64,000 bases of DNA from Squalus acanthias (Eukaryota): assembly GCA_030390025.1 (NCBI GenBank), contig CM059432.1, forward strand, positions 16,928,001 through 16,992,000, read 5' to 3'. The translations under genes and the position numbers were made by a program. The notes under the pieces were generated by a model. It saw nothing but the letters and a program-made list of their open reading frames with translations. It was not told the DNA's origin and did not search any database. Below, piece after piece: positions 1 to 47,845 of the stretch (its first letter is position 1; each line of letters starts with the position of its first letter).

Positions 1-2036
1 AGTCTAGTCAAGCAGCAGCCTGACAGTCATACTCACAGAATCATACCTTTCAGCCAATGTCCCAAACTCCATCATCACCATCCCTGGGTATGTCCTGACC
101 CACCGGCAGGAGACACCCACCAGGGGTGGTGGCACAGTAGTATACAGTCGGGAAGGAGTGGCTCTGGGAGTTTTCAACATTGACTCCGGACCCCATGAAG
201 TCTCATGGCTTCAGGTCAAGCATGGACAAGGAAACCTCCTGCTGATTACCACCTACCGCCCTCCCTCAGCTGATGAATCAGTACTCCTCCATGTTGAACA
301 CCACTTGGAAGAAGCACTGAGAGTAGCAAGGGCACAGAATGTACTCTGGGTGGGGGACTTCAATATCCATCACCAAGAGTGGCTCGGTAGCACCACTACT
401 GACTGAGCTGGCCCAGTCCTTAAGGACATAGCTGCCAGTCTGGGCCAACGACAGGTGGTGAGAGAACCAACACGAGGGAAATACCTACTTGACCTTGCCC
501 TCACCAATCTACCTGTCGCAGATGCATCTGTCCATGACAGTATTGGTAGCACTGACCGCCACACAGTCACTGTGCTAAATGGGATAGATTCAGAACAGAT
601 CTAGCAGCTCAAAATTGGGCATCCATGAGGCACTGTGGGCCATCAGCAGCAGCAGAATTGTATTCCACCACAATCTGTAACCTCATGGCCCGGCATATCC
701 TTCATTTTACCATTACCATCAAGCCAGGGGACCAACCCTGGTTCAATAAGGAGTGCAGAAGAGCATTCCAGGAGCAGCGCCAGGCATACCTAAATATGCG
801 GCGCCAACCTGGGGAAGCTGCAACACAGGACTACATGCATGCTAAAAAGCAGAAGCAGCATGCTATAGACAGGGCTAAGCGATCCCACAATCAACAGATC
901 GGATCAAAGCTCTGCAGTCCTGCCACATCCAGTCGTGAATGGTGGTGTACCATTAAACAACTAAAGGGAGGAGGAGGCTCCATGAATAACCCTATCCTCC
1001 ATGATGGTGGAGCCCAGCACTTGAGTGCAAAAGACAAGGCTGAAGAGTTTGCAATCATATTCAGCCAGAAGTGTCGAGTGGATGATCCATATTGGCCTCC
1101 TCCTGAGGTCCCCACCATCACAGAAGCCAGTCTTCAGCCAATTCGATTCACTCCACGTGCTATCAAGAAACGGCTGAGCGCACTGGATACAGCAAAAACT
1201 ATGGGCCCCGACAACATCCCAGCTATCGTGCTGAAGACTTGTGCTCCAGAACTAGCCGCGCCTCTAGCCAAGCTGTTCCAGTACAGCTACAACACTGGCA
1301 TCTATCCGACAATGTGGAAAACTGCCCAGGTATGTCCTGTCCACAAAAAGCAGGACAAATCCAATCCGGCCCCATCAGTCTACTCTCAATCATCAGCAAA
1401 GTGATGGAAGGGGTCATCAACAGTGCTATCAAGCGGCACTTACTCACCAATAACCTGCTCACGGATGCCCAGTTTGGGTTCTGCCAAGACCACTCAGCTC
1501 CCGACCTCATTAGAGGATTGGTCCAAACATGTCCAAAGTAGCTGAATTCCAGAGGTGAGGTGAGAGTGACTGCCCTTGGCATCAAGGCAGCATTTGACCA
1601 GGTGTGGCATCAAGGAGCCCTAGTAAAACTGAAGGAAATCAGGGGGGAAACTCCACTGGCTGGAGTCATACCTAGCACAAAGGAAGATGGTTGTAGTGGT
1701 TGAAGGTCAATCATCACAGTCCCAAGACATCAGGGCAGTGTCCTAGGCCAAACCATCTTCAGCTGCTTCATCAGTGACCTTCCCTCCAACATAAGGTCAG
1801 AAATGGGGTTGTTCGCTGATGACTGCAGTGTTGAGTGCCATTCACAATTCCTCAGATAATGAAGCAGTCCATGCCCCCATGCAACAAGACCTGGATGACG
1901 TTCAGGCTTGGGCTGATAAGTGGCAGGTAACATTCGCGCCACACAAGTGCCATGTAATGACTATCTCCAACAAGCGAGAGTCTAACCACCGCCCCTTGAC
2001 ATTCAACGGCATTACCATCGCCGAATCCCCCACCAT
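1..2036 (+). mobile_element. Decayed non-LTR retrotransposon ORF2 (APE + RT), a second LINE family distinct from the dominant CR1
   Basis: Endonuclease motifs TYRPP and VGDFN; RT-proximal GPDNIP..PELAAPLAKLF, QFGF and LFADD. Split by stops and frameshifts. Confidence 0.9.
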
Positions 2037-2280
2037 ACAGGCAGTAAGTACCTCATACCTGTTGGACAAGGTCAAGGGCTGAGGTTTCTCCATCACTATA
2101 TCCTGAGTCTCCATACCTTCCTGACTCGCAGTCACACCCTCCTGTCCCTGACCATTGGTTAACTCTAAAGTACTGCTTAACCTAAGGGGTGTGACTGCCT
2201 CCAGGAACAAAGTGTCCAGGTAACTCTCCCCTTCCCTGATGCATCGCAATGTCTGCAGCTCGGACTCCAGCTCAACAACT
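2037..2280 (-). mobile_element. CR1 ORF1 fragment, inverted relative to the adjacent CR1 body
   Basis: Minus-strand translation VELESELQTLRCIREGESYLD...PQPLTLSNRYEVL; LxNRY/F is typical of CR1 ORF1. Confidence 0.65.
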
Positions 2281-3760
2281 TTGGCAGGGGGGATGGGCAC
2301 CAGGATGTAGCATTAGAAAGGAGAAACAAGTGCACAAAGGATTAGGAGAGACAGATAGCACTAGAGTAAGAAATAGTAAGGTATTAGGTGGAGTCAGACT
2401 AAGAGAATACAAGAAGGTCTAGGATAGGTTTAAAGTGCATGTGTGTAAACGTACGAAGCGTGGTAAATAAGGTTGGTGAGCTGCAGGCACAAATGGCCAC
2501 ATGGAAATATGATGATGTGGTGATAACGGAGACCGAGCTCAAAAAAGGGTAGGATTGGGTTTTAAATATTCCTGGATACAAGGTATTCAGGAAAGATAGG
2601 GAAGGAAAGAAAGGAGGTGGGGTGGCAGTATTGGTTAAGGAGAATGTTACAGTGCTGGAGAGAGAGGATGTCTTTGAGGGGGTCAAGGGCAGAATCTATT
2701 TGGTTAGAGTTGAGAAATAATAGAGGTGCCATTACACTACGAGGTGTATTCTATAGGCCACCAACTAGTGGGAAAGATATACAGGAGCAAATTTGCAAGG
2801 AAATTACCGAGAGGTGCAAGAGCTATAGAGTAGTGATAATGGACTTCAATTATCCTAATATAGACTGGGATAGTAATAGTGTAAAGGGCAGAGAGGGGGA
2901 AGAATTTCTGAAGTGTGTTCAGGAGAACTTTCTTGATCAGTATGTTTCCGGCCCAAGGAAGGAGGCATTGCTGGATCTGGTTCTGAGAAATGAGGTAGGT
3001 CAAGTGGAGCAGTCGGGGAACATTTATGGAAGAGTGATCATAGTATCTTAAGGTTTCGATTAGCTATGGAAAAGGACAGGCAGCAATCTAGAGTAAAAAT
3101 ACTTGATTGGAGGAAGGCAAATTTCAGTGGGTTGAGAATGGATTGGGCCCGGGTAAACTGGAATCAAAGATTGGCAGGCAAAACTGTAATCTAATGGGCT
3201 GCCTTTAAAGAGGAGATGGCTTGGGTACAGCTTTGGTCTCCTTATTTAAGGAAGGGTATACTTGCATTGGAGGCAGTTCAGAGAAGGTTCACTAGGTTGA
3301 TTCCAGAGTTGAAGGGGTTGTCTTATGAGGAAAGGTTGAGCCTATACTCATTGGAGTATAGAAGAATGAGGGGTGATCTTATTGAAACATAAGATTCTGA
3401 GGAGGCTTGACAGGGTAGATGTAGGGAGGATGTTTCCCCTCGTGGGGGAATCTAGAATTAGGGGGCAGAGTTTCAGAATAAGGGGTCGCCCATTTAAAAC
3501 AGAGATGAGGAGGAATTTCTTCTCTGAGGGTCGTGAATCTTTGGAATTCTCTACCCCAGGGAGCTGTGGAGGCTGAGTCATTGAATATATTCAAGGTGGA
3601 GATAGACAGATTTTTGAAAAACAGGGGCATCAAGGGTTATGGGGAGCGGGCAGGAAAGTGGAGTTGAGGCCAAGATCAGATCAGCCATGATCTTATTGAA
3701 TGGCAGAGAAGGCTCAAGGGGCCAAATGCCCTACTCCTGCTCCTATTTCTTATGTTCTTC
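2281..3760 (+). mobile_element. CR1 LINE, internally deleted (APE region joined to the 3' end)
   Basis: GVFYRPP, DFNYP and LLDLVL endonuclease motifs, a jump near 3230 to the C-terminal SRxRG..MRRNFF, and the CR1 tail CCTACTCCTGCTCCTATTTCTTATGTTCT. Confidence 0.9.
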
Positions 3761-5725
3761 TATAGGTATGTAAAAAGGAAAAGATTAGCAAAAGTAAATG
3801 TGGGTCCCTTACAGGCTGAGACAGGAGAAATTATAATGGGGAATAAGGAAATGGCAGAGAAATTAAACACTTTGCATCTGTCTTCACGGAAGATGACGCA
3901 AAAATCTTCCTGGAAATAGGGAGGACCAAGGGTCTAGCGAGAATGAGGAACTGAAAGAAATTAGTATTAGTAAAAAAAAAATAGTACTGGAGAAATTAAT
4001 GGGACTGAAAGCCGATAATTTCCCTGGACCTGATGACCAACATCTTAGGGTTTTGAAAGTGGTGGCTATAGTGATAGTGGATGCATTGGTTGTCATCTTC
4101 CAAAATTCCATAGATTCTAGAACGGTTCGAGAAGGATCTCTGATTATAATCGCTCAACTTTTGGTGGCCATGCCTTCTGTTGCCTGGGCCCTAAGCTCTG
4201 GAATTCACTGCCTAAACCTCGCCGCCTCTCTTTCCTCCTTTAAGACGCTCCTTAAAACCTACCTCTTTGACCAAGCTTTTGGTCACCTGCCCTAATTTAT
4301 CCTTATGTGGATCGGTGTCAAATTTGTCATAAAATACTCCTGTGCAACGTTTTACTACGTTAAAGGCGCTATATAAATACAAGTTGTTGTTCCCACAGAT
4401 TGGAAGGTAGCAAATGTAACCCCACTATTTAAGAAAGGAGGGAGAGAGAAAACGGGGAACTACAGACCAGATAGCTTGACATCAGTAGTAGGGAAAATGC
4501 TAGAATCTATTATTAAGGGTGTGGTAACAGGGCACTTAGAAAATAATAATAGGATTGGGCAGTCAACACGGATTTATGAAAGGGAAATCATGTTTGACAA
4601 ATCTGTTAGAGTTTTTTGAGGTTGTAACTAGCAGAATAGATAAGGGGGAACCAGTGGATGTGGAGTATTTGGATTTTCAGAAGACATTCGATAAGGTTCC
4701 ACACAAGAGGTTATTAAACAAAATTAGGGCTCATGGGATTGGGGGTAACATACTAGCATGGATTGAGGATTGGTTAACGGACAGAAATAGGAATAAACGG
4801 GTCATTTTCGGATTGGTAGGCTGTAACTAGTGGGGCACCGCAAGGATCCGTGCTTGGGCCTCGGCTATTCACAATCGATATCAATGATTTGGGTGAGGGG
4901 ACCAAATGTAATATATACAACTTAGCTGATGATACAAAGCTGGGTGGGAATATAAGTTGCGAGGAGGATGCAAAGAGGCTTCAAGGGGATATAGACAGGC
5001 TAAGTGAGTGGGCAAGAACATGGCAAATGGAATATAATATGGAGAAATGTGAAGTTATCCACTTTGGTAGGAAAAATAGAAAAGCAGAGCATTTTTTAAA
5101 TGGAGAGAGATTGGGAAATGTTGGTGTTCAGAGGGACCTGGGTGTCCTTGTACACAAATCACGAAGTTAACATGCAGGTACAGCAAGCAATTAGGAAAGC
5201 AAATGGTATGTTGGCCTTTATTACAAGAGGATTTGAGTATAAGAGCAAAGATGTCTTACTGCAATTATATAGGGCCCTGGTGAGACCACAGCTGGAGTAT
5301 TGTGTACAGTTTTTGTCTCCTTACCTAAGGAAGGATATACTTGCCATAGTGGGAGTGCAACAAAGGTTCACCAGACTGGTTCCTGGGATGGGGGGATTGT
5401 CCTATGAGGAGAGATTGAGTAGACTAGGCCTATATTCTCTGGAGTTTAGAAGAATGAGGGGTGATCTCATTGAAACATAAAAAATTCTTACAGGGCTTGA
5501 CAGGGTCGATGCAGGGAGGATGTTTCCCCTGGCTGGGGAGTCTAGAACCAGGGGTCACAGTCTCAGAATAAGGGGTCGGCTATTTAGGACTGAGATGAGG
5601 AGAAATTTCTTCACGCAGAGGGTGGTGAATCTTTGGAATTCTCTACCCCAGAGGGCTGTGGAGGCTCAGTCGTTGAGTATATTCAAGACAGAGATCGATA
5701 CATTTTTGGATATTAAGGGAATCTG
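3761..5725 (+). mobile_element. CR1 LINE ORF2 RT region, decayed, interrupted by an L2-type 3' tail at about 4135-4390
   Basis: QHGFMKGKSCLTNLLEFF, LDFQKTFDKVPH, LADDTKLGG and RPQLEYCVQF across broken ORFs. Confidence 0.92.
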
Positions 5726-6265: not shown

Positions 6266-6953
6266 GGGGGAAAAATTGGGTCGCGCCCCCTTTGGGGTGC
6301 TAACTTCGCCAGGGCGCTACTTTTAGCGCCCCCGCGCCTGAAATTCACCGGTCGCACCACAAGAGGGAGGCGGGGCGTTACTGGAAGCGCCCCGCCTCCC
6401 TCTTGGGGCGCTGCAAGTGAATGTCACGGCGCTACGTGCCACAGAGCCACGCTCTGCGGTACTTCGCACCACGGTACTGCAGGCCATCCTCCCCTTACAG
6501 CTGGGCCTCCAGGGATCGGGAGTACCGGCAAAAGAGCCCAGCACTCAAGAGAAGTGCCGGGCTCCCGGAGCGCAGCTAGCACTCCGCTGGGGGGCTGAAC
6601 AGAAGGCCGGGGACGGCAAAGCGGGCAAGTGCTGGCAGGCGGCCAGCAACAAAAATGGCCACCCGGCACCTTCCCTTTAATTTGCGCCGCCCCGGCCGCA
6701 GGTAGGCCCCCCTTAACCCTGTCAGACATAGCGTCCGGCGGTAAGTCAGGGGGCGCTACCAAAGATCATGGCCAAGGCGCTGCGCACGGCGATGATGTCA
6801 TCGCCGGCAGCGCAGTGTCGCGGGGCGCTAACCGTTACCGCAGCCGCAAACTTCCCGCTGAATTTCACGGGAGGCGTTAGCGGCGCCACGCCCTGGCGCT
6901 AGTTTCTTTGCGTCCCGTTAGTGGGAGGCGCAAATTAACCGAATTTTTCCCCC
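6266..6953. mobile_element. GC/CpG-rich non-autonomous element (PIF/Harbinger-type MITE)
   Basis: TIRs GGGGGAAAAATT and AATTTTTCCCCC, flanked by TTT on both sides (6263-6265, 6954-6956), with an abrupt GC shift against the flanks. Confidence 0.75.
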
Positions 6954-7879
6954 TTTGAGCTTACCGAGGACTTTCATGTCAGTTATATCAAAGTCTCAAA
7001 TTTTAAGCCTCATGCTTTTCCTTGTGAATACTTTGTACTCATTCAGAATATTCACTATTATGTTCACTCAGTTTCAAGCCCATTAACATCTTTTAATGTT
7101 CTCGCCTCTTCTCCGACAGTCCTCTTGCTTTTGTAGTAGAGTTATATTTTCCCTCTGGAGCTGCAGTTCTCCCCCACAAGGTCTCTTCATCGCTCTGATC
7201 AACCTTTTTTTTTTAAAATGTGTTTCTGCATGTTTGTGTTTTTCCCCAGTAATTCCCTTCCCCTTTCTGTTGGATTTCTGGAGGTCTTTACTTCAATTTT
7301 GTCTTTACTTCACTTTTACATTGTACGTAACAATGCTTATAGTTTCGTACTTGAAATTTTTTATGCAAGCCTTTATTTTAATATTTTCAATAATAATGGA
7401 ATCTTAAATGCCATGCCTAATCTACATGCCTAAGATTATAAAAATATCATGACCTTTAATTTAAAAAAAATGCAAATTGCCAGATTTACCAATTGGGCAG
7501 ATAAAATGAATCAATTTCAATGGCGTCCTTTAGAAATGTCTACAATTATGCTTTGAGATCAAAAGTTAGTTAAGGGCTTGCTTCAAGAAACTCCAGTACA
7601 AAACACATACGCATGTCAACAGCTGCCTTCCTTTATTAAGTTATAGCAGTTACCTCTGGATAGTATTAATCTGCACGCTACATATCAGTATGTTAGGAGT
7701 ATGATTCAAGAACTGCGTGTGGAAAAATAGAGCACAAATAAGGGTCATGTAAGCCAATCAAAAAAAATGTTCCCCTACATAAACAGCAGGAAATGATTTG
7801 CTCATCCATTGAGTCAGCCAGATTGGCGTCACTCCAGCCTGTAAGCATTACACACTGTCACCAAGGTTTACAACCATAC

Positions 7880-14360: not shown

Positions 14361-16306
14361 ACATTTTAAACTGCGACGTCAGGCTGTGTCCCGTGTTTTA
14401 AGGTGTAAACGGGCTTGGTACAGCGAAGGCTGTCCGCAGTTCATAATTTGTGAATCTTCCATGGTTTCCAGAGTGCCTCTTGCATCTTTTACAATGCAAG
14501 TTATTTGGCACCGTCAGTAAATGTCCGTTTCTTGCTGGTGTCCCGTGGCGTACAGTTTCATGAGAACCAGGTACCTGCTGGCAATTCATCCCAAGTGTAA
14601 GCCATGACACTGAGTGTTGGCAGCCTTTTTGTCTGTGGATAACATTATATTCAAGGGCAATTGACACATGTACGCCGAGTAGTATAGCTGTACAGTGAAT
14701 CCTGTCCAATTTTCCCTTCAGAAACACTGACAAAGTTGATCACTCTTGACACCTGACCCAGATGAAATATAAGATGCCCATAACTGTAACTATTGACACA
14801 CAATGCGATCAGAGGAAATGGTCCAAAATACGTGAAAACCAGGGGAAGAAAGAGAAAACCTTGCAAAAAGTGAAATAAATATACATTAGCAGTATGTGGT
14901 TTACAAAAATAAATAAATATATTTTTACGCCGTATACTGTGTTCACTTAGCTTTTTTTCTTTAAATAAAACCATCTTCTAGTTTCGGGCCTGAGCCTCAG
15001 TCTGGTAAGTGCATTTTTAACCTGCCTTTTTAAAATAGAATCAAAGGGCAACACATTTTACATTTCAGCAGCCGATGTACAGACTGAGAGTTCTCTCTTA
15101 CAATCCCTGGAGCTCACGATCAGTTAAATAGAAATTGGGCAGGTTAAGAGTAAGACACACTCCAAGTCTAGAGGACCTGATGTTCACTTATGGGAGTGGT
15201 CAGCGACAGTGAACCAAATATCCAACATAAAAATCCAAGAAAGGGACATCAGTTTCAACTTCCAACATTTCCCCTTATGCAAGTAAAAATCCAGCTTTCC
15301 AATGTACTAATTCGAAAGGAAAATTAGATTAGATTGTTACTTTTGATGTAGACATCTCTGGTAGTTGCGTGCTGGTTGACATGTCCTATACAGAAATTTG
15401 TTCTATTCTACAAAAATTGAGTTGAACGTGGCATTGCCTCGTGACATACTGCACTAGTCTACTATCATGCAGTACTTCCACAAAAAATTAGGCTGCAGTA
15501 CCGGTCAGCAAGACTATTACCTTGCAGGTCTACAATAAAAACTACTGATCTGAAAATATTATAGAAAAATTCAAATACTCAAGCTAAGTAAAATCTTTAT
15601 TTATTTCAGCAAAACTGGTTAACGTAGGATTTAAACTACAACATTTTGAAGAGCAGATGGCAGCTCACAAAACTTTAGAACATAAATTAAATAAAAATCA
15701 GTAAGAAGACAGCATCACACAGAGGAAGAAAATCTATGCACTTACAACAAAATTGTTAACCATATATCTCTGAGGAAATCCTCCCACAGTGCATTAAACT
15801 ACAGAATCCTAAAAATCTTCCAACAAGCTCGTCAATGCCCAGGTTAGAGGAACAATTGAACTGTATCCATTTAGAAATAATTTCATTCTCTGGATACCAC
15901 TCAAAAGCAAGTTTTCCTTTGATTGCATAAAGTTAAGCACATTACTGTAAAAACGATACTATACAAGCCTAAATATCAATTTGTGCAGATAAAAAACTTT
16001 ACTACTTATCTCAGAACCAAAAAGACTAACATTAAAAAATTCAAAAATAGCACATTTATGTCAAGATAATTACTGCATTTTTACCACTGCTGACTACCAC
16101 CAACCCGGTTCATGTATAGTACTTACCCGTTAACTCTACTATGCTCAGATATCAATCAGGATAAGAATGTAATACATTAGAATACCACATTACAGCATCA
16201 CTCTCGTGGCTCATTGGGTATTTCATGTTCCTTTTTAATTACAGGAAACTTTCGTTTATCCGGCACCCAAATATCCGGAATTCTCGCTTAACCGGCAAAA
16301 ATCATC

Positions 16307-16440
16307 CTCCGAAAACTCCTCTCAAATAACCGGCAATGTTGCCGAGTCGCAGTCGAGTCTCCGCGAACGGCGAGTGCTCCGAAAACTCCTCTCAAATAAC
16401 CGGCAATGTTGCCGATCCCGAGTCCGAGTCCGCGAACGCC
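16307..16440 (+). repeat. Two-copy ~70-bp tandem repeat in the 5' region of the Tigger element
   Basis: CTCCGAAAACTCCTCTCAAATAACCGGCAATGTTGCCGA starts at both 16307 and 16377. Confidence 0.9.
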
Positions 16441-16718
16441 GATTTAGTCAGTAGGGGTACTTTTCAAAAGTGCCACTACTCGGCCTCCTGGCGCTGTCGC
16501 AAGTCCGAAACATTGCAGCAGCATGAGTAGATTCTCCCGCGCTGCCTGGAGTCTCTTCTGATCGGCCATTTTGCTGGGTGTCTCCCACGATGCTGGTAGT
16601 CTCTTCTGATACACCATTTTGCTGTGTGTCTGCCACGCTGCTGGTAGTCTCTTCCTAGCCACCATTGTTCTGTGTGTCTTTCCATCTTCATCGGCAATTA
16701 TCTCCTCCATCTTGCATT

Positions 16719-18491
16719 ATGGAATTCCCAAAAGCTGGTCCAAGCAAAAGGAAGAGAGTGGTCTTAACTTTAAAACAGAAAATCGTGATATGCCAACGAC
16801 TAGAAAGGGGAGAGAAGCGTATCAACATTATGAATGAATTCAAAATCGGTTCGTCAACAATCTACGACATCAAATCGCAGAAGGATAAGCTGCTCAAGTT
16901 TTATTCAAGCTCGGAGACATGCAAGAGTGTAGAGAAACGGCGTACGCTTCGTAAGCCTAAGCTTGAAGAGCTGGATACCGTGCTTTATGAATGGTTTTCT
17001 CTTAAGCGTTCAGAGGGTGTTCCAATTTCCGGACCCATGCTCATCGAGAAAGCAAAGGATTTCTACGAAAGGATGGAGCTCACTGACAAGTGTGCTTTCT
17101 CCGATGGATGGCTAACGTGCTTCAAGTTACGGCACGGGATACGACGACTCGATATTTCCGGGGAGAAGAAATCAGCTGATCACGAAGCCGCAGAAGAATA
17201 CTGCGATTATTTCAATCGGATTGTGCAGCAACATGATTTGTCGCCAGCACAGATCTACAATGCCGATGAAACTGGCTTGTTTTGGAGGTTTTTGCCAGAA
17301 TCAACGCTTGCTGGGGCTAGTGAGGCTAATGCTTCAGGTTACAAGAAAAATAAAGATCGTGTAACCGTGCTAACATGTGCGAACGCCGCTGGATCACACC
17401 GGGTTAAACTTCTTGTTATCGGGAAGTATAAAAATCCCCGTGCATTTAAAAATGTGAGGCACTTACCTGTTGAGTACAAAGCTCAAAAAACTGCTTGGAT
17501 GGATAAGGAAATCTTCTCCGATTGGTTCCATCATATTTTTGTTCCATCTGTGAAGGAACATTTCCGCAGAATAGGGAAACCTGAAGATAGCAAATGCATT
17601 TTATTGCTTGATAATTGCAGAGCCCATCCGCATGAATCCCAGTTGGTTTCGGGAAATATTTTCACCATTTATTTGCCACCAAATGTAACTTCTCTCATCC
17701 AACCCATGGACCAGGGCGTTATCCAAAATCTGAAGTGTCATTACAAGAAAGACTTCCTACGTAAACTGCTAAGCCAAGATGAGAATATTCAAGATTTGCA
17801 GAAGGAATACAATATTAAAGATGCCATCTATAATGTTGCATGTTCCTGGAAATTGGTGAAAGGTCACACTCTGAGGCAAGCCTGGCGCAAATTGTGGCCT
17901 TCTGTAATGTTTGCTGAAGGTTCTTCTTCAGAGGAGGAATTTCATGGGTTCAGTGTTCGTCCCAAGAAGAGTACAATAATGGAAATGGCTGGAATGGTGA
18001 AACATGCAGGCCCAGCAAACCCTCTACGTTACCTCAGTGAAAGTGATATCGAGCAGTGGGTTGATGCAGATAGAGAAGTTGGTGTTGTGCATATGCTAAG
18101 TGATGATGAAATAATTCAGAATGTTTTGAATCCAAAGAAAGAAAAGGAAAGCGAGATGGAAAGTGAAGAGGATGAGATTTCTGAAGAAGAGAAGATTTCT
18201 TGGGCTAAAGCTGCAGAAGGATTTTCTACAATCCTCAAATTTGCTGAAAGGCAGAATTGCTACTCTGCACAAGAAGTTATGCAACTCCATATTCTGCATT
18301 CCACCTTTCTACAGAAAAGGCAAGAGTCCACTAAGCAAACCGACATCCGCAACATGTTTAAGAAAGCTTCCAAAAGAGTCGCAGCAGTGGAAGTGCCTGA
18401 AGAATCTGTGGCATCGGTGGAACTGCGTGATCCTGATGACCCAGCTGGCACGGATACGGATATTTCTGATGAACCAGATGACTCGGAATAA
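16719..18491 (+). CDS. pogo/Tigger (CENP-B/Jerky-like) transposase, about 590 aa, DD32D
   Basis: First ATG of ORF 16665..18491 is at 16719 ([21 protein letters not shown]). N-terminal basic and HTH segments (LYEWF, FSDGWL..FKLRHGI). Catalytic motifs [21 protein letters not shown] and IQPMDQGVI, with 32 residues between the 2nd and 3rd Asp. Acidic C-terminus. Confidence 0.93.
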
Positions 18492-19273
18492 GTGTACAGT
18501 CAACTACAGTACTGTAGACAGTCGTTTATAAGTTTTGTTTTACTGTTAAGTAATTAAAGAGTTATGGATTACCCTCAACTGGCAGTACTGTACTTAATCA
18601 AGCATCTTCCACTATCCATTTAACACAACATTCTGTAGGTGAGTACCCAAATACTGTATACTGCACATTTCTTGATTTTTTTATGTTAAAAATAGCCTCG
18701 GTAGATATAACTCTCCGTTATCCGGTACTTTCGATAAACCGGCACCACGCCGGTCCCGTCGATGCCGGATAAACGAAAGTTTCCTGTAGTACATTGGAAT
18801 GCTTTTATTTAAAATAAACTAATTTCAATGAGTTCATTGCTATTACCGAGCTGTACAATGGAACAAGAAAGTTCCACGTTTGACGCTTGCATTTGCTGAG
18901 TTAACTAATTTCAATCGAGCTGCTAGAACTGACCTCATTGATCCTAACTAGAGACATGGACATTCACTATGCAGAACAACAACTACTTGGAATCATAGAA
19001 TGATACAGCACAGAAGGAGGCCATTTGGACCATCGTGCCTGTGTTACCTCTTTGGTAAAGCTATCCAATTCGTCCCACTCCCCTGCTCTTTCCCCAGCTA
19101 TGTCTCAGTGGGTAGCACTCTCGCCTCAGAGTCAGAAGGTTGTGGTTCAAGTCCCCCTCCAGGGACGTGAGCACATAAATCTAGGCTTACACTCCAGTGC
19201 AGTGCTGAGGGAGTGTTTTATAAAGGTTTAGCATAACTTCCTTGCTTTTGTTCTCTATGCATCTATCAATAAA

Positions 19274-19440
19274 ATTGAGAGGTCGCACAACACCAGGTTA
19301 TAGTCCAACAGTTTTATTTGAAATCACAAGCTTTCGGAACTATCGCTCCTTCCTCAGGTGAAGTAGCGATAGTTCCGAAAGCTTGTGATTTCTCAATTTT
19401 GTCCACCCCAGTCCAACACCGGCATCTCCGCATCATGACC
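19274..19440. mobile_element. Short fold-back retro-insertion (family B, Penelope-end type) with 12-bp TSD
   Basis: TCTATCAATAAA at 19262-19273 and 19441-19452; internal inverted arms; closely similar to 37272-37481. Confidence 0.85.
19324..19361 (-). ncRNA. Minimal type-I hammerhead ribozyme motif (family B)
   Basis: UCAC-CUGAGGA-A-GGAGC-GAUA-GUUCC-GAAA-GCUU-GUGA. Intact CUGANGA/GAAA/UH core; stems I and II pair. Confidence 0.75.
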
Positions 19441-29496: not shown

Positions 29497-30264
29497 GGCC
29501 CATAATTTGCGGTCAGCGGCGAAGCCAAGGCGTTCGCCGCTGGCCCCCAAACTAAGTTTCCCACAAAGATCTCGATCTCTGTGGCAAGAAGTTCGGTTTT
29601 TCCAAAATGCAGTTGAAATCAATATAGTACAGTGGGAATCCCATAGTGCGAGCTGCTGTGATGTCAACAAGCTGTCCAATCACAATGCAGAATTCACACA
29701 GACAGGCAACCAGAAAATAGAAAGCACTAATAAACAATCACTTTTTCAAAAATATACCGAGAGCGAAATAAAGATTGGGACATACACATTGGGTTAAGGT
29801 AGAAGCTGAAATGACATTAACAAACTTTTAATTTTTTTAAAATTAATTTTAAAATCTAATCATTTTTAACTTAATGGAGAAATTTGACATTCCACCAATA
29901 TAAAATTCATTTTTCAGGGTCAGAACAGCTGTTTATCAGTAGTTATTACTCAGATCGCTGTTAAACCTCATTATGAATGGGTGTAACTTTTTATGGGGTT
30001 TCTAACAGCAAGATTTGTTCTGAAAGGGGAAAGTTTTTGTCAGATCAGTGATTTCACCGATTGCCAGCTCAAGGCCGGGTGGGGGGTGGAGGGAGGCCGG
30101 TTCACAGCGCAGCCTGTGGAGGAGCAGTGAATGACAGACCGCAACTTCAGGATTTCTGTGTTAGGCTGCGCATGCGCTAAATCCTGAAGTTGCGGTCAGT
30201 TTCAAAGGCGAAATGACGATGAACGTTGCCAGTTCGCCATCATCAGGACCACAAGTTCCAGGCC
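29497..30264. mobile_element. Putative Harbinger-type MITE
   Basis: Imperfect TIRs GGCCCATAATTTGCGGTC and GACCACAAGTTCCAGGCC, CpG-rich ends, internal perfect 19-bp inverted repeat at 30137-30197. TSD is not clean. Confidence 0.55.
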
Positions 30265-31949
30265 AATACATTTACTGTAGAGAGGTAAATTTCTTTATAA
30301 ATGGATTCATGTATGTTTCCCCCAGAGAAAATTTTCCCAGGGTGTTAAAATTAAGTCATTAACTATAGCAAGGAAACAGATTAACCATCTTTATTTTAGT
30401 TTTCCTTTTCAATTATGCAGGAGACATTTGTAGAATACCCAACAACCACCTCATCAAACAACCACAAAGTTCCTAATGTAATCCAACTTGCTTTCAAGGC
30501 CGACCACTTACAGAAGTATGTGGGGCGGCAACAGGAAAACATAATTTCAGACTTGTGTATCTTCATATCTGCGCAGAAATGTCTCTTTACACCTGCACAA
30601 TAACCTACAGTAACTAATACAAAGGGTTCAAAACTAAGGGAACCAAAACTAGCGCAATCACCTCTTAAAATTAATTTCAGGACATCCCAATATATGCTTA
30701 ATCCCTGTAAAATGTCAAAGGCTATCCCTTAAGGTTTCCTGAAAGCAAAAACTAATTATAGCCTAAAGTTTACTGAAATACAATTTGAACTCGAGACATA
30801 AACAGGAAATATCATTCTTTTGAAGCAATGCCCAACTGAACAGAAACACTAGTATTCTTCTCAGGGACCCATGCACACTATTATTGCATGGAATTCAGAT
30901 TTGATCTTGGAATATAGGCATTACAGCAAAAAAGCTATTTTGGGTGGAACCTGAAAACTACTGTACCTCTATCCAACCTTCTTTATAACTTAACTTTTTA
31001 GTTTCAAATTATTACATTTTTAAAAAATGGCTCCAAAACGTGAATCAAAATTAGGGTTGCCAGAACTTGATCATTTTAATACAAGGAAAACGCGAAAGAC
31101 AAAGCATTCTATATCATCACTTTTCACCAAATTTGAAGATAGAAAGCTGGAGAAGCCTATCCCCATTAATCCAAACATTTTCACTACAATCCCTAATGAG
31201 CATTGTAACTTTACTCCAGTGAAAGTCAAGTTTAAAACATGGACTTCTGCTCCAAAACACAACTAAATTCCTGAAAAACAAAGGATTGAGTGTAAATCTT
31301 AAGAGCTCTAAAACAGAGCTTAATTGCAAGAATTTCAGTATCTTCATAATGAATGTCAGTTGGAAGAACCTTGAGTCTAAAATCTACCAGGCCACCTGTG
31401 GGGTATTGCAGCCTTCAAAATCTGTAAACTGCTCCTGCAGTGGTGCAGAGTGCAGCAGCAACATTTTTTGATGAGCTGACCCAAGGTCTATAAATCATGT
31501 AAACCAAATCAATTTAAATTTATAGAACACCTTTAATGCTGTAAAACGTCACAAGACAATTCACTTGTGGATTAAACGGAGCAGGATTAAGAGGGAAATT
31601 AGGGTCAAAGCTGTGGCCAAAGGGGTAGGTTTTCAGGAGACTTTTGGGGGAGGAAAAATATCGTACCGCACAAGGAGTTTAGGGAAAGAGTTAAGATGAC
31701 TGAAGGTTATACCACTGCTCACAGAATGGAATGGGGGGCGAGGGAAGAAAACCATAGAAAGGGTGCAAGCAGGAATAAAGCACTGGAGAAGGCGGCAAAG
31801 GTTAAGTGAAGAAATCTGCAGATATTCCATTTGTTCATTTGAAAATTTCAAAACATAGATTGATACATTTTTGTTAAGCAAGGGTATTAAGGGTTAAAGA
31901 ACCAAGGTGGGTACATGGAGTTAAGATACAGATCAGCCATGATCTAACT

Positions 31950-37271: not shown

Positions 37272-37481
37272 AAAGTGAGAAGTCGCACAACACCAGGTTA
37301 TAGTCCAACAGTTTTATTTGAAATCACAAGCTTTCGGAGCGGCTGCTCCTTCGTCAGGTGACGAAGGAGCAGCCGCTCCGAAAGCTTGTGATTTCAATAA
37401 AACTGTTGGACTATAACCTGGTGCTTTGCGACTTCTCACTTTTGTCCACCCCAGTCCAACACTGGCATCTCCGCATCATGG
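37272..37481. mobile_element. Palindromic fold-back retro-insertion (family B) with 13-bp TSD
   Basis: About 85-bp inverted arms at 37272-37356 and 37359-37442 around a 2-nt centre. TSD CAACAATTGTATT at 37259-37271 and 37482-37494. Confidence 0.9.
37324..37361 (-). ncRNA. Minimal type-I hammerhead ribozyme motif (family B)
   Basis: UCAC-CUGACGA-A-GGAGC-AGCC-GCUCC-GAAA-GCUU-GUGA. Confidence 0.78.
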
Positions 37482-39393
37482 CAACAATTGTATTGTTTCA
37501 GGTCCCTGAATGTCTTCTCACAGAGTTCACAGTTTGATCTAATTTAGTCAAATTGAAGGAGTGGAATGGGTCAGTTGGTCACAGATTTTTTTAGTGAAAT
37601 GTGGAAGAAAAAATGTGAACAAGACTTCAATATAGGCATTCCCTCATAAGGTACAGTGTGTATCAAGCTGTTGGGAACACACTATCTATCCTTGGATTCA
37701 AAAGTTGTGGATCTGTCTCAGTCCCTGACAGTAATTAAATCAGACAGTTATCAAATAGAATTTTTTCCTGTTAGAATTAGTTGCTCATCAATATCTATCT
37801 CCTTCAGATACCACTGATCTTACACCATTTTAGTCAGTCTAATTCCTGAGACATAAGCCAAGTGCTTATTACTGACCTTTCACTACATATAAAATTTGTA
37901 TATATGTATGAAGGGACCAAATTTTTGGTAAGAAATATTATTTTTAAGCTGTGGTAGCCTTTTACTGGAATGAATTCAATTTCCAATATGTTGATATAGA
38001 TCTCAGAAATAAAACTTTCCACAGATTGTAGGTTTTCCTTTTCAAAGCAATAAATGCATTAAAAGCATTTCTCAAAGCACCACGCATCATTCTAATATTT
38101 AGATAAGACTTTTCTGGTAAAAATTGCAGCATGTCTTCAATACTAATGACAACAGAAACAGATCTGAAAACGAAAGCCTTGTTCATTAACTGTTTGTGCA
38201 CCAGGACCATTTGTGGGGCCATCCTGGTTAAAAGGAATCCTGGACAGAGTCAACACCTTTCATATAAAAAATCATAATGGCAACATAAACATTTGTTTAA
38301 CAAGTGAACAATTTCAGTTACATAAAACAATAAAAGCTATTCAATTTATATTGGGCAAATGTGATTTATCTCAATTCAGAATTAACAAATGCTTCAAATG
38401 AATGCTCTGTTATTGTTTATTACATATAACGCATTAATGAGACTATAATTTCACACTTCGGCTTTCTTAATCTATTCTATAACACACTATTTAGTGGTGT
38501 CACCATTCTGCAATATACCACTGCTTCGTGGAAAGCTAAGCTGCTGTACAAAGTGTAACAACAGACATTCATTCCGTGCCAAACAAAAAAAATATTGTTG
38601 AAAATCCAAATGAAAGCACTGAATCAGGTGTATGCCACTGCAACGGATGGATTGCGGGGGAGGGAGATGTGTTCACATATTTCTAAAAAAGGTACCGAAA
38701 ATGAAACTCCTCAATTCAGGAACAACGAAATAAACGAATCCCTCCCCTCTGGAGAAACAAAACCTTCGGAAAAAACAGGAGAGAAAGCAGGTAGTGCGGA
38801 TCAATAGCCGCAACTCTCCTCTGCATATACTGTTAACTGCAATATGTACACAACCAATTGAGGCACGCACCGTATACACACATACACTTCACTGATCGCA
38901 GCCTTTGCAAATGCAGTAAAAGTGCACGATGTTACTCACGCGCACACACACACACAAATACATACCCCAGGCCCAAATACAACAAAACCCCAACACTTCA
39001 AATAATCACCTCTGGTGATATTTTTTTTTTTGCCCACCGCTATCAGGACCAGAATGAACTTGGTGTCAGGGGAAAAAAAAAATACAAAACCGTCTGCTTA
39101 CATCTGTTGCACTTTATTTATGCAAGAATTAAAATTTAAAAGTCCACCCCCCCCCCCACCTCTCTCCTTCCTTTCTGAAGGGCCGGACAGAGGGAAGAAC
39201 AAGGATTGCGGGCGACACTCTCCCTCCCCATCCATCCTGGCGCTGCAAACTTCGCCACTCCAAACAGCATTCAGTTATTAAACACCCTTTTCCTACCAAC
39301 GGCTTTGTGTGTGTGTGAGGGAGGAGAGAGAAAAACATCAGACACCTCCCCTCCGTGGTTTAACATTTAAAACAAAAAATAACACTCACTTAC

Positions 39394-39760
39394 TTTCTGT
39401 TCAGTTAAAGGAGGAAAAAAAATCCGCTGCTCCGGAGAAGCCGTTGTGTTCTGCCAGGCAATACTTGCAGAAGACAACACCACAAAAAAAAAATCATGAG
39501 GAGGAGGGGAGGGAAAAAAAAAGGTTTTTCAGATTCCGGCCGCGTTTTCTTTGACACACACGCACGCTCCGCAAAAAAAAATAATACCTCAGCGGAGCTC
39601 CCTCCTCCCCTGCCCTGCCACCAGCCGCCGCCGCTCTTGCCACCTCCTCCTCCTCCTCGCTTCCCTCTGTCTCGCTCTCTCTCAGCCCAACGGCTGACAA
39701 GCCGCCGGCCGCACTGGACGCTGGGAGGCATTGTCAGCTCTCCAAAATGGCGGCTGTGAA
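39394..39760 (-). other. Candidate first (5'UTR) exon of an unidentified host gene
   Basis: GGA/GGC-repeat leader downstream of the YY1 motif, ending in ACAGAAA|GTAAGTGAG and followed by T/GT-rich intron-like sequence. TSS is approximate. Confidence 0.6.
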
Positions 39761-39835
39761 GAGAGGTGGAGAAGCAGTTCGACACGCGCAAAAAAACACC
39801 CAGCGAGTCCAACAACTCGCTGCTCCCGCCAATGT
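39530..39835 (-). promoter_or_regulatory. CpG-island promoter with YY1-like and E2F-like motifs
   Basis: Non-repeat CpG-rich segment. CAAAATGGCGGC at 39743-39754 reads GCCGCCATTTTG on the minus strand. CTCCCGCCAAT near 39824-39834. Confidence 0.7.
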
Positions 39836-45369: not shown

Positions 45370-47845
45370 AGTGGTAAAGGGGAATGTTGGCCCATTAGAG
45401 ACAGATACAGGTAAGACAATAAAAAATGGCCAACTTAAATTAGAACTCTGTATCCATTTCACAGTGGTGGAAGAGGTCAAAATACCAGCAGTGCAAGGGA
45501 ACTTAAAACTAGGTCAAGGGGTATTTAATATAAGTAAAAAATTGGCAATGGGACTTGATGGTTTCCACCCCAGAGGATTTAAAGAAATAGGTAAAGAAAT
45601 TCCAGGTGCAGTAGTAATAATTTTCCAAAGCTCTCTAGCTTCAGGATTGTGCCTTTGGATTGAAAATTACAAATGTCACTCTATTATTGAGGAAATGAGG
45701 GAGGTAACAACAGACCCACCAGTTTAACATTAATCGTGGAGACATTATTGGAATTTATCATGTGACAGAGTGACTGAGCATTTGGACTCTATGGGCTGGA
45801 TTTTGTCAATGGGGACGTGATGGAGGCGGGACTCCCACTTTTTGGGTTGTAGTCCCGCCTCCATTGACTTGTGGCCAACCCACTGTATTTTCCCTTGATT
45901 GACCTTGTTAAGCCCGCCCAGCGGGCTTAGCAGGCCAATCAAGGGTCCCTTGGATACAGGTGACGTCAGCCATTGAAATTTCATCTGTCAAGAGCTTTTG
46001 ACAGATGAAATTTCAGCGTTTGACAGCTCTGTGAAGCTGTCAAACACTGACAATATGGTTTCTAACGTGAGTCCCTGTACTTCGACTCAGTTAGAAATCA
46101 ATCCAGCACAGAAAGCAGAACTGCAGCTTTTGACAGCTCAGCGGCCATTCTGCTTTCTGTGCCGGTGAGATTTCTGACTCCCGAGACCTGAAGGGCTGAC
46201 ACCTGCAGGAGGAAGTTAAGGTAAGTAAAACTTTTTTCCACACTTTACACTTACCTTACACACTTACCTCTGCACACATGCACCCATCACTCACCTGCCC
46301 ACCGGACATATCGACCCCTCCAACCCCTGCAGACCCACGGTCCGCCTCACTAAAACGGCGTGGTTTGGAGCCATCGGGTAGCCCACACTTCAGGGCTAAA
46401 AATAGGGATTAGGCAACAAACTGCCTGTTAACTACCTGTTAACAGGCAGTTAATTGTCACTAATCCCCTTCCCGCCTCGGGGAGGCGGCTCCCAGCGCAG
46501 GTCGGGTACCCGCCTCCTGTGAAACTGGCATGGAGGCAGGATGGGTTCGGGATCCCCGAATCTGCTATTTTCCCACCCCACACGCCTCCAAACCCGCCTC
46601 CACGGGCCGGTGAAAATTCTGCCCTATGAGATGACCAAAGAGAGTCAGTGTGGATATATGAAGGATAGGTCATGTCTAACTAATCGAGTTACATTTTTTC
46701 AGGAGGTCACTAACATGGTTTACAGAGGATGTATGGACCTCCAGATGCCATTTGATAAGGTTCCACGCATGTGATTATTTGCAAAATTTAAAGGGCACGG
46801 AGTTGGAGGTAACCTTGGGACATGGATTGGTAATTGGTTTGGAGGTAGGAGAGAGAGTAGGGATAAAAAGAATGCGTTCTCATTACTGGAATGTGACAAG
46901 TGGTGTTCTGCAGCGATATGTACAGTGCCCTAGGTTTTCACTATATATCTTAATAACTTGGATGAAGGAGTAGAGAGTTGTATTTCAAAGTTTGTAGATG
47001 ATATTAAGTTATGTGGCATAGTTGTGTAGGTGGGAGTAAGATGTTACCAAGGGCCATAGACAGACTAAGCAAAACTATGGCAGATGGAGTTCAATGCAGT
47101 GAAGTGTGTGTAAGACACATCAAAATATTTTCTTAATGGTGAGAGACTAGGAGAAAAAGGATTTAAAGTGTGCATGTATACAAATCACTAAAAGCTAGTG
47201 CGCAGGTACAAAAAGTAATCAAAAATGTTGGAATTTTGGCCTTTATCTCGAGGGGATTGAAATTCAAAAGTGAGGAAGTGCTGTTTCAGTTGCAGAGAGT
47301 CTTGATCAGACCCTATCTGCATTCATTTTGGGCACTGAACCTCAGAAAAGATATACTAGCCTTGGAGTGGGTACAGCGTAGCTTCATCAGAATGATACCA
47401 GGGCGTAAAGGGTTAAATTATGAGGAGAGCTTGTATAAGCTTGGTTGTATTCCCTTGAGTTTAAAAGGTTTAGGGGTAGTCTAATCGAGATATTGAAAAT
47501 GGTAAAGGGATTCAATAGGTTAGATGCAGAAAAACTATTTCCTCTGGTGGGGGAATCCAAAACAAGGGGCCATAATCTTTAAATTAGAGCTAGGCCACTT
47601 AGGAGTGAAATCAGGAAGCACTTTTTCACACAGAGGGTAGTGGAAATCTGGAATTTCCCAACAAGGCCGTGGATGCTGGGTCAATTGAAATAATTAAGAC
47701 TGAGATCGATAGATTTTTGTTAGCTAAGAATATCAATGGACATGAAGCAAAGGCGGGTAAATGGAGTTGACGTACAGATCAACCATGATCTAATTGATTG
47801 GCAGAACAGACTTGAGACTGAATTGCCGACTCCTGTTCCTATGAC
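45370..47845 (+). mobile_element. Decayed CR1 LINE interrupted by a MITE
   Basis: KGNVGPLETDTG, DRSCLTN..FFQEVT, FDKVP and the CR1 tail. Confidence 0.85.
45793..46624. mobile_element. Harbinger-type MITE
   Basis: TIRs GGGCTGGATTTT and AAAATTCTGCCC; 3-bp TSD TAT (45790-45792, 46625-46627). The CR1 sequence resumes across it. Confidence 0.8.

Follow-up and report, generated by a model that had tools for sequence, protein, structure and literature searches.

Introduction

Tigger transposons of the pogo superfamily are flanked by a TA target-site duplication (TSD) and carry short terminal inverted repeats (TIRs) starting with CAG and a single open reading frame (ORF) for 300 to 685 amino acids, in which CENP-B_N, HTH_Tnp_Tc5 and DDE_1 domains are combined with a DD29-36D catalytic triad (PMC7386202, PMC9219625). 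The name covers a polyphyletic assemblage (Dupeyron 2020, PMC7325037), and intact copies are uncommon in vertebrates, yet have been reported from sharks, turtles and the coelacanth (PMC9219625). JRK, which derives from Tigger, is conserved as a host gene and evolves under purifying selection (Ka/Ks 0.21; PMC7386202), and JRK 'pseudogenes' have been listed in cartilaginous fish, the coelacanth and frogs (Gao 2020, PMC7386202). The JRK protein binds the termini of Tigger15a, probably its source family (Codebook, PMC13538051). A precedent for gene transfer with a native pogo-type element is Passer (DD35D, pogo superfamily), which is active in human cells (Wang et al. 2023, PMC9976928). Here, we examined a Tigger-like element located in a stretch of 64,000 nucleotides of Squalus acanthias DNA (contig CM059432.1, positions 16,928,001 to 16,992,000; this whole stretch is called the window below). 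It proved to be a DNA transposon of the pogo/Tigger type, complete from end to end and with its DD32D transposase frame open. Once highly active, it is most likely dormant now and has most likely been passed on by vertical descent since a burst in an ancestor.

Structure of the element and its transposase

The element resembles described Tiggers in its TA duplication, its short TIRs starting with CAG, its single ORF, its domain set and its triad (Table 1). The left and right TIRs are identical at 24 of 24 bases, a length within the range of Tiggers (8 to 33 bp). A 22-base TIR pattern allowing up to three mismatches had only these two matches in the window, and none of 100 shuffled sequences gave two matches. 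The E-values of the Pfam matches of the transposase were 2.9e-17 for CENP-B_N, 5.7e-15 for HTH_Tnp_Tc5 and 9.4e-56 for DDE_1. In addition, the observed/expected CpG ratio was 0.84 in the element and 0.36 in the remainder of the window, and the value of the element exceeded those of all 225 overlapping windows of the same size outside it (the highest being 0.66). The preliminary description of this DNA, which was made from the letters alone, had pointed to identical TIRs flanked by TA, to an uninterrupted ORF of about 590 residues with all three catalytic Asp residues and to retained CpGs. Each of these statements was confirmed, as was its view of the element as a structurally complete DD32D transposon of autonomous layout.

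In pogo and Tc1-mariner elements, a bipartite helix-turn-helix (HTH) region of the transposase binds the TIRs, the DDD core cuts at both ends, and insertion at a TA dinucleotide duplicates the TA. By analogy, the two HTH domains of the present transposase would bind the TIRs of the element, its DDD core would cut the element at both ends, and the excised element would be pasted into a TA site, duplicating the TA. The subterminal copies of the inner TIR motif are predicted to serve as extra binding sites for the transposase. These copies, which are present at both ends, and the 70-bp and 48-bp tandem repeats had not been mentioned in the preliminary description. A similar repeated inner TIR motif is found in a sponge Tig1-like element.

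A PDB search with the transposase returned a sole match, CENP-B (1hlv; E = 2.5e-8). The AlphaFold model built on a 16-row alignment was poor (pLDDT 52, pTM 0.29), and only its first HTH was usable. Cys134, located in the second recognition helix, was considered as a damaging change private to this copy and was rejected, since the alignment has Cys at this position also in shark, coelacanth, reptile and echidna relatives.

A search of the supplements of PMC7386202 and PMC9219625 with the initial 12 bases of the TIR gave no match. The Tiggers listed there for the white shark, bamboo shark, catshark and whale shark have other TIRs and other lengths, and are present in 1 to 41 copies (PMC9219625, PMC7386202). 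A literature search, which did not extend to Repbase, Dfam and most subscription papers, yielded neither a description of these elements nor a test of a Tigger transposase in cells. Passer shares the superfamily, short TIRs and the TA target with the element. On the other hand, it belongs to another family (DD35D, with a Brk-type DNA-binding domain), and its stickleback copies, 16 of 16 intact with 99.97% transposase identity, are much younger than the copy in the window (PMC9976928).

Table 1. Features of the element in the window (aa, residues of the transposase)
Feature	Position	Strand	Basis or remark
Left TA TSD	16240..16241	.	Sequence
Left TIR, 24 bp	16242..16265	+	Repeat search, TIR pattern scan
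Subterminal copy of inner TIR motif, predicted extra transposase binding site	16282..16298	+	Repeat family D2, motif scan
Weaker copies of inner TIR motif	16320-16336, 16390-16406		Motif scan
70-bp tandem repeat, 2 copies	16307..16442	+	5' non-coding part
48-bp tandem repeat, 3.1 copies	16533..16679	+	Several internal-deletion breakpoints inside (16555-16576)
Transposase ORF, 590 aa, uninterrupted	16719..18491	+	ORF list, Pfam
CENP-B_N (first HTH), aa 10-61	16746..16901	+	Holds the unshared change of this copy at aa 23
HTH_Tnp_Tc5 (second HTH), aa 83-143	16965..17147	+	Pfam
DDE_1	aa 212-389		Pfam
Catalytic triad DD32D	17265..17711	+	D183 (17265), D298 (17610), D331 (17709)
Segment with all 17 listed ORF differences between the two subfamilies	17105..17953	+	
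Two subterminal copies of inner TIR motif by the right end	18711..18745	+	
Right TIR, 24 bp, same as left	18763..18786	-	Repeat search, TIR pattern scan
Right TA TSD	18787..18788	.	Sequence

Copy number and past mobility of the family

At least half of the sampled words of the element were present in 16 of the 24 listed public sequencing runs, which carry 8 organism labels and come from 8 studies (7 without the possible source). Contigs of four runs were aligned to positions 14400 to 19000: X1 (organism A, of which about 55% was read), X21 (organism K), X6 and X12. The three aligned runs that hold the element represent organisms A, B and H. In X1, the unique left flank of the element was found on a single contig with a depth of 15.3 and 6 differences in 1410 bases (0.43%), so organism A is the host or a very close relative. 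The depths of the ORF bins of X1 summed to 22,000 to 58,000, and one contig alone reached 8400, about 550 times the flank depth. The summed ORF-to-flank ratios of 1460 to 3800 are upper bounds, since overlapping contigs were added, and depth does not equal copy number; the copy number of the family is accordingly read only as hundreds or more.

In the aligned runs, at least 12 joints skip about 2.0 to 2.4 kb between both ends of the element. In X12, a different sequence follows the right TA, representing another flank in another organism. The element thus belongs to a dispersed multi-copy family with non-autonomous derivatives, and past mobility of the family is shown. The internally deleted derivatives have retained both ends. 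The transposase would also have acted in trans on them, so that the ends of the element now outnumber its ORF, being about 4- to 19-fold deeper in the aligned runs.

X6 and X12 had next to no cover of the flanks of the element, and such gaps prove nothing. In X21, there were only short matches of 85 to 90% at 14464-14530 and 18237-18298; neither these matches nor the gaps of X6 and X12 were taken as evidence for or against transfer between species. No joint skipping the whole element was listed; X1, the one aligned run of organism A, covers neither the left junction nor 15940-16093, so fixation of the insertion is not demonstrated. The raised depth of X1 at 14400-14550, together with the short X21 matches, suggests a fragment of another repeat about 1.7 kb to the left of the element. 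A scan of metagenome contigs with the TIR pattern gave no match, and a protein pattern scan gave 58 pattern matches, none of which was confirmed.

Relationship to JRK and to jerky homologs

The best named protein matches of the transposase, among the 120 of 1122 matches listed, are annotated as 'jerky homologs'. In this set, identities were 68% in the coelacanth, 64 to 65% in turtles, 64% in the alligator and 59% for marsupial JRK, and a whale shark match had 73% identity over two thirds of the length. The 90% cluster of the top match (P0001) consists of 15 'jerky protein homolog' records with different accessions, all from one coelacanth species. These proteins have a DD32D triad, a length similar to that of the present transposase and 68 to 70% identity to it, and differ in their host. 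Fifteen records in one species are as expected of a transposon family. By contrast, the 13 members of a marsupial cluster come from nearly as many species. The start visible in the entry for the putative pseudogene 'JRK-latcha' (Gao 2020, PMC7386202) matches the P0001 cluster by eye. The kinship to JRK claimed in the preliminary description is supported, and its statement that such transposases can be automatically annotated as jerky-like host genes is borne out by the coelacanth records. Other 'jerky protein homolog' clusters are likewise multi-copy within one species (P0094 in the coelacanth, 9 records; P0019 in Bombina, 4 records), and these too are probably transposon copies.

In a 30-row tree, the transposase grouped with whale shark and bamboo shark proteins (99/97). 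This shark group fell within a 16-row group with coelacanth, crocodilian and turtle proteins and mammalian JRK (89/91, not starred), and a similar group of 29 rows was obtained at 86 in a quick tree of 76 rows; both trees were built without Passer, pogoR, Lemi, Mover or Fot outgroups. An approximately unbiased (AU) test rejected a clade of the transposase with five mammalian JRKs (p = 3.8e-40). Mammalian JRK has the same domain layout and triad spacing as the transposase, with 63 to 70% identity in the DNA-binding region and 57 to 70% in the catalytic region. In contrast, therian JRKs lack 8 residues directly behind the third catalytic residue and have a different second recognition helix, and mammalian JRK is a host gene, whereas the element is mobile in origin and lies outside the JRK clade. 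With moderate support, the family would belong to the vertebrate Tigger lineage that gave rise to mammalian JRK by domestication, as a cousin and not an orthologue.

It is scarcely credible that the ORF is instead a domesticated single-copy host gene, that is, a shark orthologue of JRK that still has transposon ends, a case that the preliminary description had itself named as one that would overturn its reading. The 'jerky protein homolog' annotation of the best named matches and the identity of the DNA-binding region to that of mammalian JRK would fit such a gene, and JRK is likewise DD32D/E (PMC7386202). However, the sequence is present in hundreds of copies accompanied by deletion derivatives, and has perfect TIRs and a TSD. 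Moreover, both the AU test and the 15 records of a single species in the top-match cluster argue against it. At the eight ORF positions at which this copy stands apart (5 non-synonymous and 3 synonymous changes), neutral evolution was not rejected (p = 0.22). The ORF is neither single copy without transposon ends nor in one clade with mammalian JRK, as would be expected of a JRK orthologue.

Several relatives may have had separate histories. The whale shark (P0161) and bamboo shark (P0006) proteins are sisters of the transposase on a long shared branch, keep the triad and form clusters of one or two members (two isoforms in the whale shark), suggesting a possible separate domestication in carpet sharks. 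The P0046 cluster holds one 'jerky-like' protein at 90% or more across three skates and a devil ray. It groups with invertebrate and other sequences, and may represent a batoid domestication from another Tigger lineage. P0010 (Pelodiscus) and P0067 (Geotrypetes) are jerky-like transposases with an extra PF01352 (KRAB) domain, and appear to be host-transposase fusions.

Two subfamilies

The copy in the window and the contigs of organism B differ from the contigs of organism H and from the commonest type in organism A at 17 listed ORF sites, all of which lie within the segment given in Table 1 (range test, p about 1e-5, with bounds taken from the data). These sites comprise 13 amino-acid changes and only two listed synonymous changes; the small number of synonymous changes may partly be due to difference rows beyond the 40 of 67 that were covered. 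The amino-acid changes are strongly conservative (mean BLOSUM62 score 1.23, compared with -0.48 for random changes; p about 1e-4). Both types are deep in organism A. There were probably two source lineages, both once functional, and one of them is probably a recombinant across the catalytic region.

Vertical descent and horizontal transfer

Internal-deletion breakpoints near 16555>18540 and 16557>18684 were found in all three holder runs (A, B and H). The breakpoints 16300>18703 and 16316>18510 are common to B and H, and 16468>18642 is common to A and H. All three organisms also have a shorter variant of the TIR. The simplest reading of the shared breakpoints is a burst of transposition in a common ancestor, from which the derivatives were inherited.

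The preliminary description had suggested that the element was possibly acquired by horizontal transfer. Recent transfer, either into the host species or among unrelated holder organisms, would account for near-identical sequence in 8 differently labelled organisms, and Tigger transfer has been reported in animals (PMC9219625). The CpG content of the element is unlike that of its host, and the copy has its closest counterparts in contigs of B (0.5%) and not in the most abundant type of A and H. This last point is explained by sorting of subfamilies, since both are deep in A. Several non-autonomous derivatives with the same breakpoints are shared by differently labelled organisms, which would be hard to achieve by transfer. 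Furthermore, two protein searches gave no relative above 73% identity, the best matches being at 68 to 73%, and thus no close foreign relative. Sharks supply the nearest related proteins and are followed by the coelacanth and reptiles, an order that roughly mirrors the tree of the hosts. Recent acquisition was therefore not borne out, and we consider it very unlikely. An ancient transfer into the ancestor of the holders is neither favoured nor opposed by these data, and recent transfer gains no positive support from them.

Divergence, age and activity

The copy in the window showed 10 differences in 1909 bases (0.5%) and two insertions or deletions relative to the three listed ORF contigs of organism B, and 29 differences in 2032 bases relative to the listed ORF contigs of organism H. 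It is therefore not identical to the family majority and lies 0.5% from its nearest contigs. At least eight positions of the ORF set the copy apart from all three holder runs, and for five of them no aligned contig has the letter found in the window. Four of these five unshared changes alter amino acids. One lies in helix 1 of the first HTH, where residue 23 is Val in this copy and Asp or Glu in 14 of 15 homologs. Among the eight positions, which are few for such a test, neutral evolution was not rejected. The ORF has already lost two CpGs, a rate 4.6-fold above that of other sites (p = 0.10).

With 8 to 10 changes, the chance of a stop-free frame is 0.61 to 0.67, and the chance that two TIRs stay identical at 0.5% divergence is 0.79; the 'perfect' structure of the copy thus requires neither selection nor recency. 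The open frame would reflect the small number of mutations gathered in a slowly evolving genome and not maintenance by the host. With the mutation rate of the epaulette shark (7e-10 per base per generation; PMC10587355), an age of about 4 to 7.5 million generations would follow from 5 to 10 changes, or one of 0.65 million at the most favourable bounds.

The preliminary description had called the element young and possibly still active. That the family is still transposing, with this copy or a sibling making active transposase today and a recent insertion, is a view that the perfect TIRs and TSD, open ORF, intact triad and high CpG would suit. The hundreds of ORF-bearing copies, the high similarity among the X1 contigs and the conservative subfamily differences point the same way, and in the coelacanth low divergence has been taken as a hint of current Tigger activity (PMC9219625). 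However, such intactness is expected by chance at the divergence of this copy, which has five changes found in no aligned contig, four of them non-synonymous, and has lost two CpGs from its ORF. The deletion derivatives are common to differently labelled organisms. In addition, an X1 contig of 173 bases extends from within the right TIR to the flank seen in the window and shows no differences. This contig is no more than a hint that a haplotype 0.43% away has the same insertion, as it has 22 letters on the element side, and the minimum of the tool is 31. Among the listed runs, no RNA run holding words of the element was found, and runs guessed to be RNA were not aligned. Current transposition is accordingly regarded as unlikely, and the claim of youth was not supported for this copy.

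Taken together, the data are best read as a multi-copy family whose amplification would date back to an ancestor shared by several related species, likely sharks, with the present copy probably having drifted neutrally at this locus for millions of generations; we assign this reading a probability of roughly 0.7. Several points weigh against it. We infer the kinship of the holder organisms, and with it the ancestral burst, from the shared deletions. The support for the vertebrate group in the tree is moderate, and a long-branch row (P0017) falls within that group. The difference counts are partial, covering 40 of 67 difference rows and about 55% of X1, and the age estimate assumes that the shark host mutates like the one species from which the rate was taken. 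The unshared changes could already have been present in a parent element of low copy number, or could be errors of assembly, and the insertion would then be younger than its divergence. Moreover, the family is highly uniform, with a similarity of at least 99% among 1796 of the 3713 aligned X1 contigs (48%), and the copy in the window could be much older than some others. Finally, the 13 conservative differences between the subfamilies indicate that the enzymes of the source lineages were functional until fairly recent times.

Host context and other features of the window

The longest other stop-free frame in the window has 282 codons. A Pfam scan covered 146 of the 181 other frames of at least 75 codons, the 35 left out being those of the element itself and mostly overlapping or opposite-strand frames. 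Matches to the endonuclease and reverse transcriptase of long interspersed nuclear elements (LINEs) were split over separate frames (8 of the 146 scanned). The earlier statement that the other transposon coding regions in this stretch are broken is thus in agreement with the scan. No host coding domain was detected by Pfam in these 146 frames, nor was a coding exon of a host gene found.

A CpG-rich, promoter-like stretch lies at about 39.4 to 39.8 kb (39390-39800), with minus-strand GT donors at 39393 and 39587 by eye. Candidate minus-strand exons bounded by AG and GT, non-coding and belonging to a putative host gene, were likewise noted by eye at 13043-12891 and 7712-7654; the 153-base candidate exon holds short ATG-started frames. 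As the preliminary description had proposed, it is plausible that the element lies antisense in the 5' (first) intron of this putative gene. There are also two copies of a small element with a long, nearly perfect hairpin, at 19320-19392 and about 37290-37430, the first with arms of 33 bases that are 97% complementary. Stretches of 0.7 to 0.8 kb rich in CpG or GC, at about 6270-6960, 29500-30270 and 45790-46620, resemble non-autonomous DNA elements and are putative members of that class.

Implications

One more intact vertebrate Tigger is no surprise, and the value of this element rests on its kinship to JRK and on the chance of a working natural copy. Among the 'jerky homolog' annotations and JRK 'pseudogenes' of non-mammalian species, many would be copies of transposons, to judge by the present results. 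For slowly mutating genomes, these results also call for caution, in that perfect TIRs, an open frame and kept CpGs are not proof of recent activity. The element provides a complete transposase together with its ends from the wider lineage of JRK, by which end binding, cross-recognition and the loss of catalysis become testable. It is a possible, though doubtful, extension of these results that the lineage behind mammalian JRK survives as a mobilisable element, in the sense that at least one natural ORF among the hundreds of near-identical copies transposes. If so, the family would offer a Tigger-type gene-transfer system with 24-bp ends. It would also offer a working counterpart of JRK with which to test what domestication kept, namely the binding of ends, and what it lost, namely catalysis.

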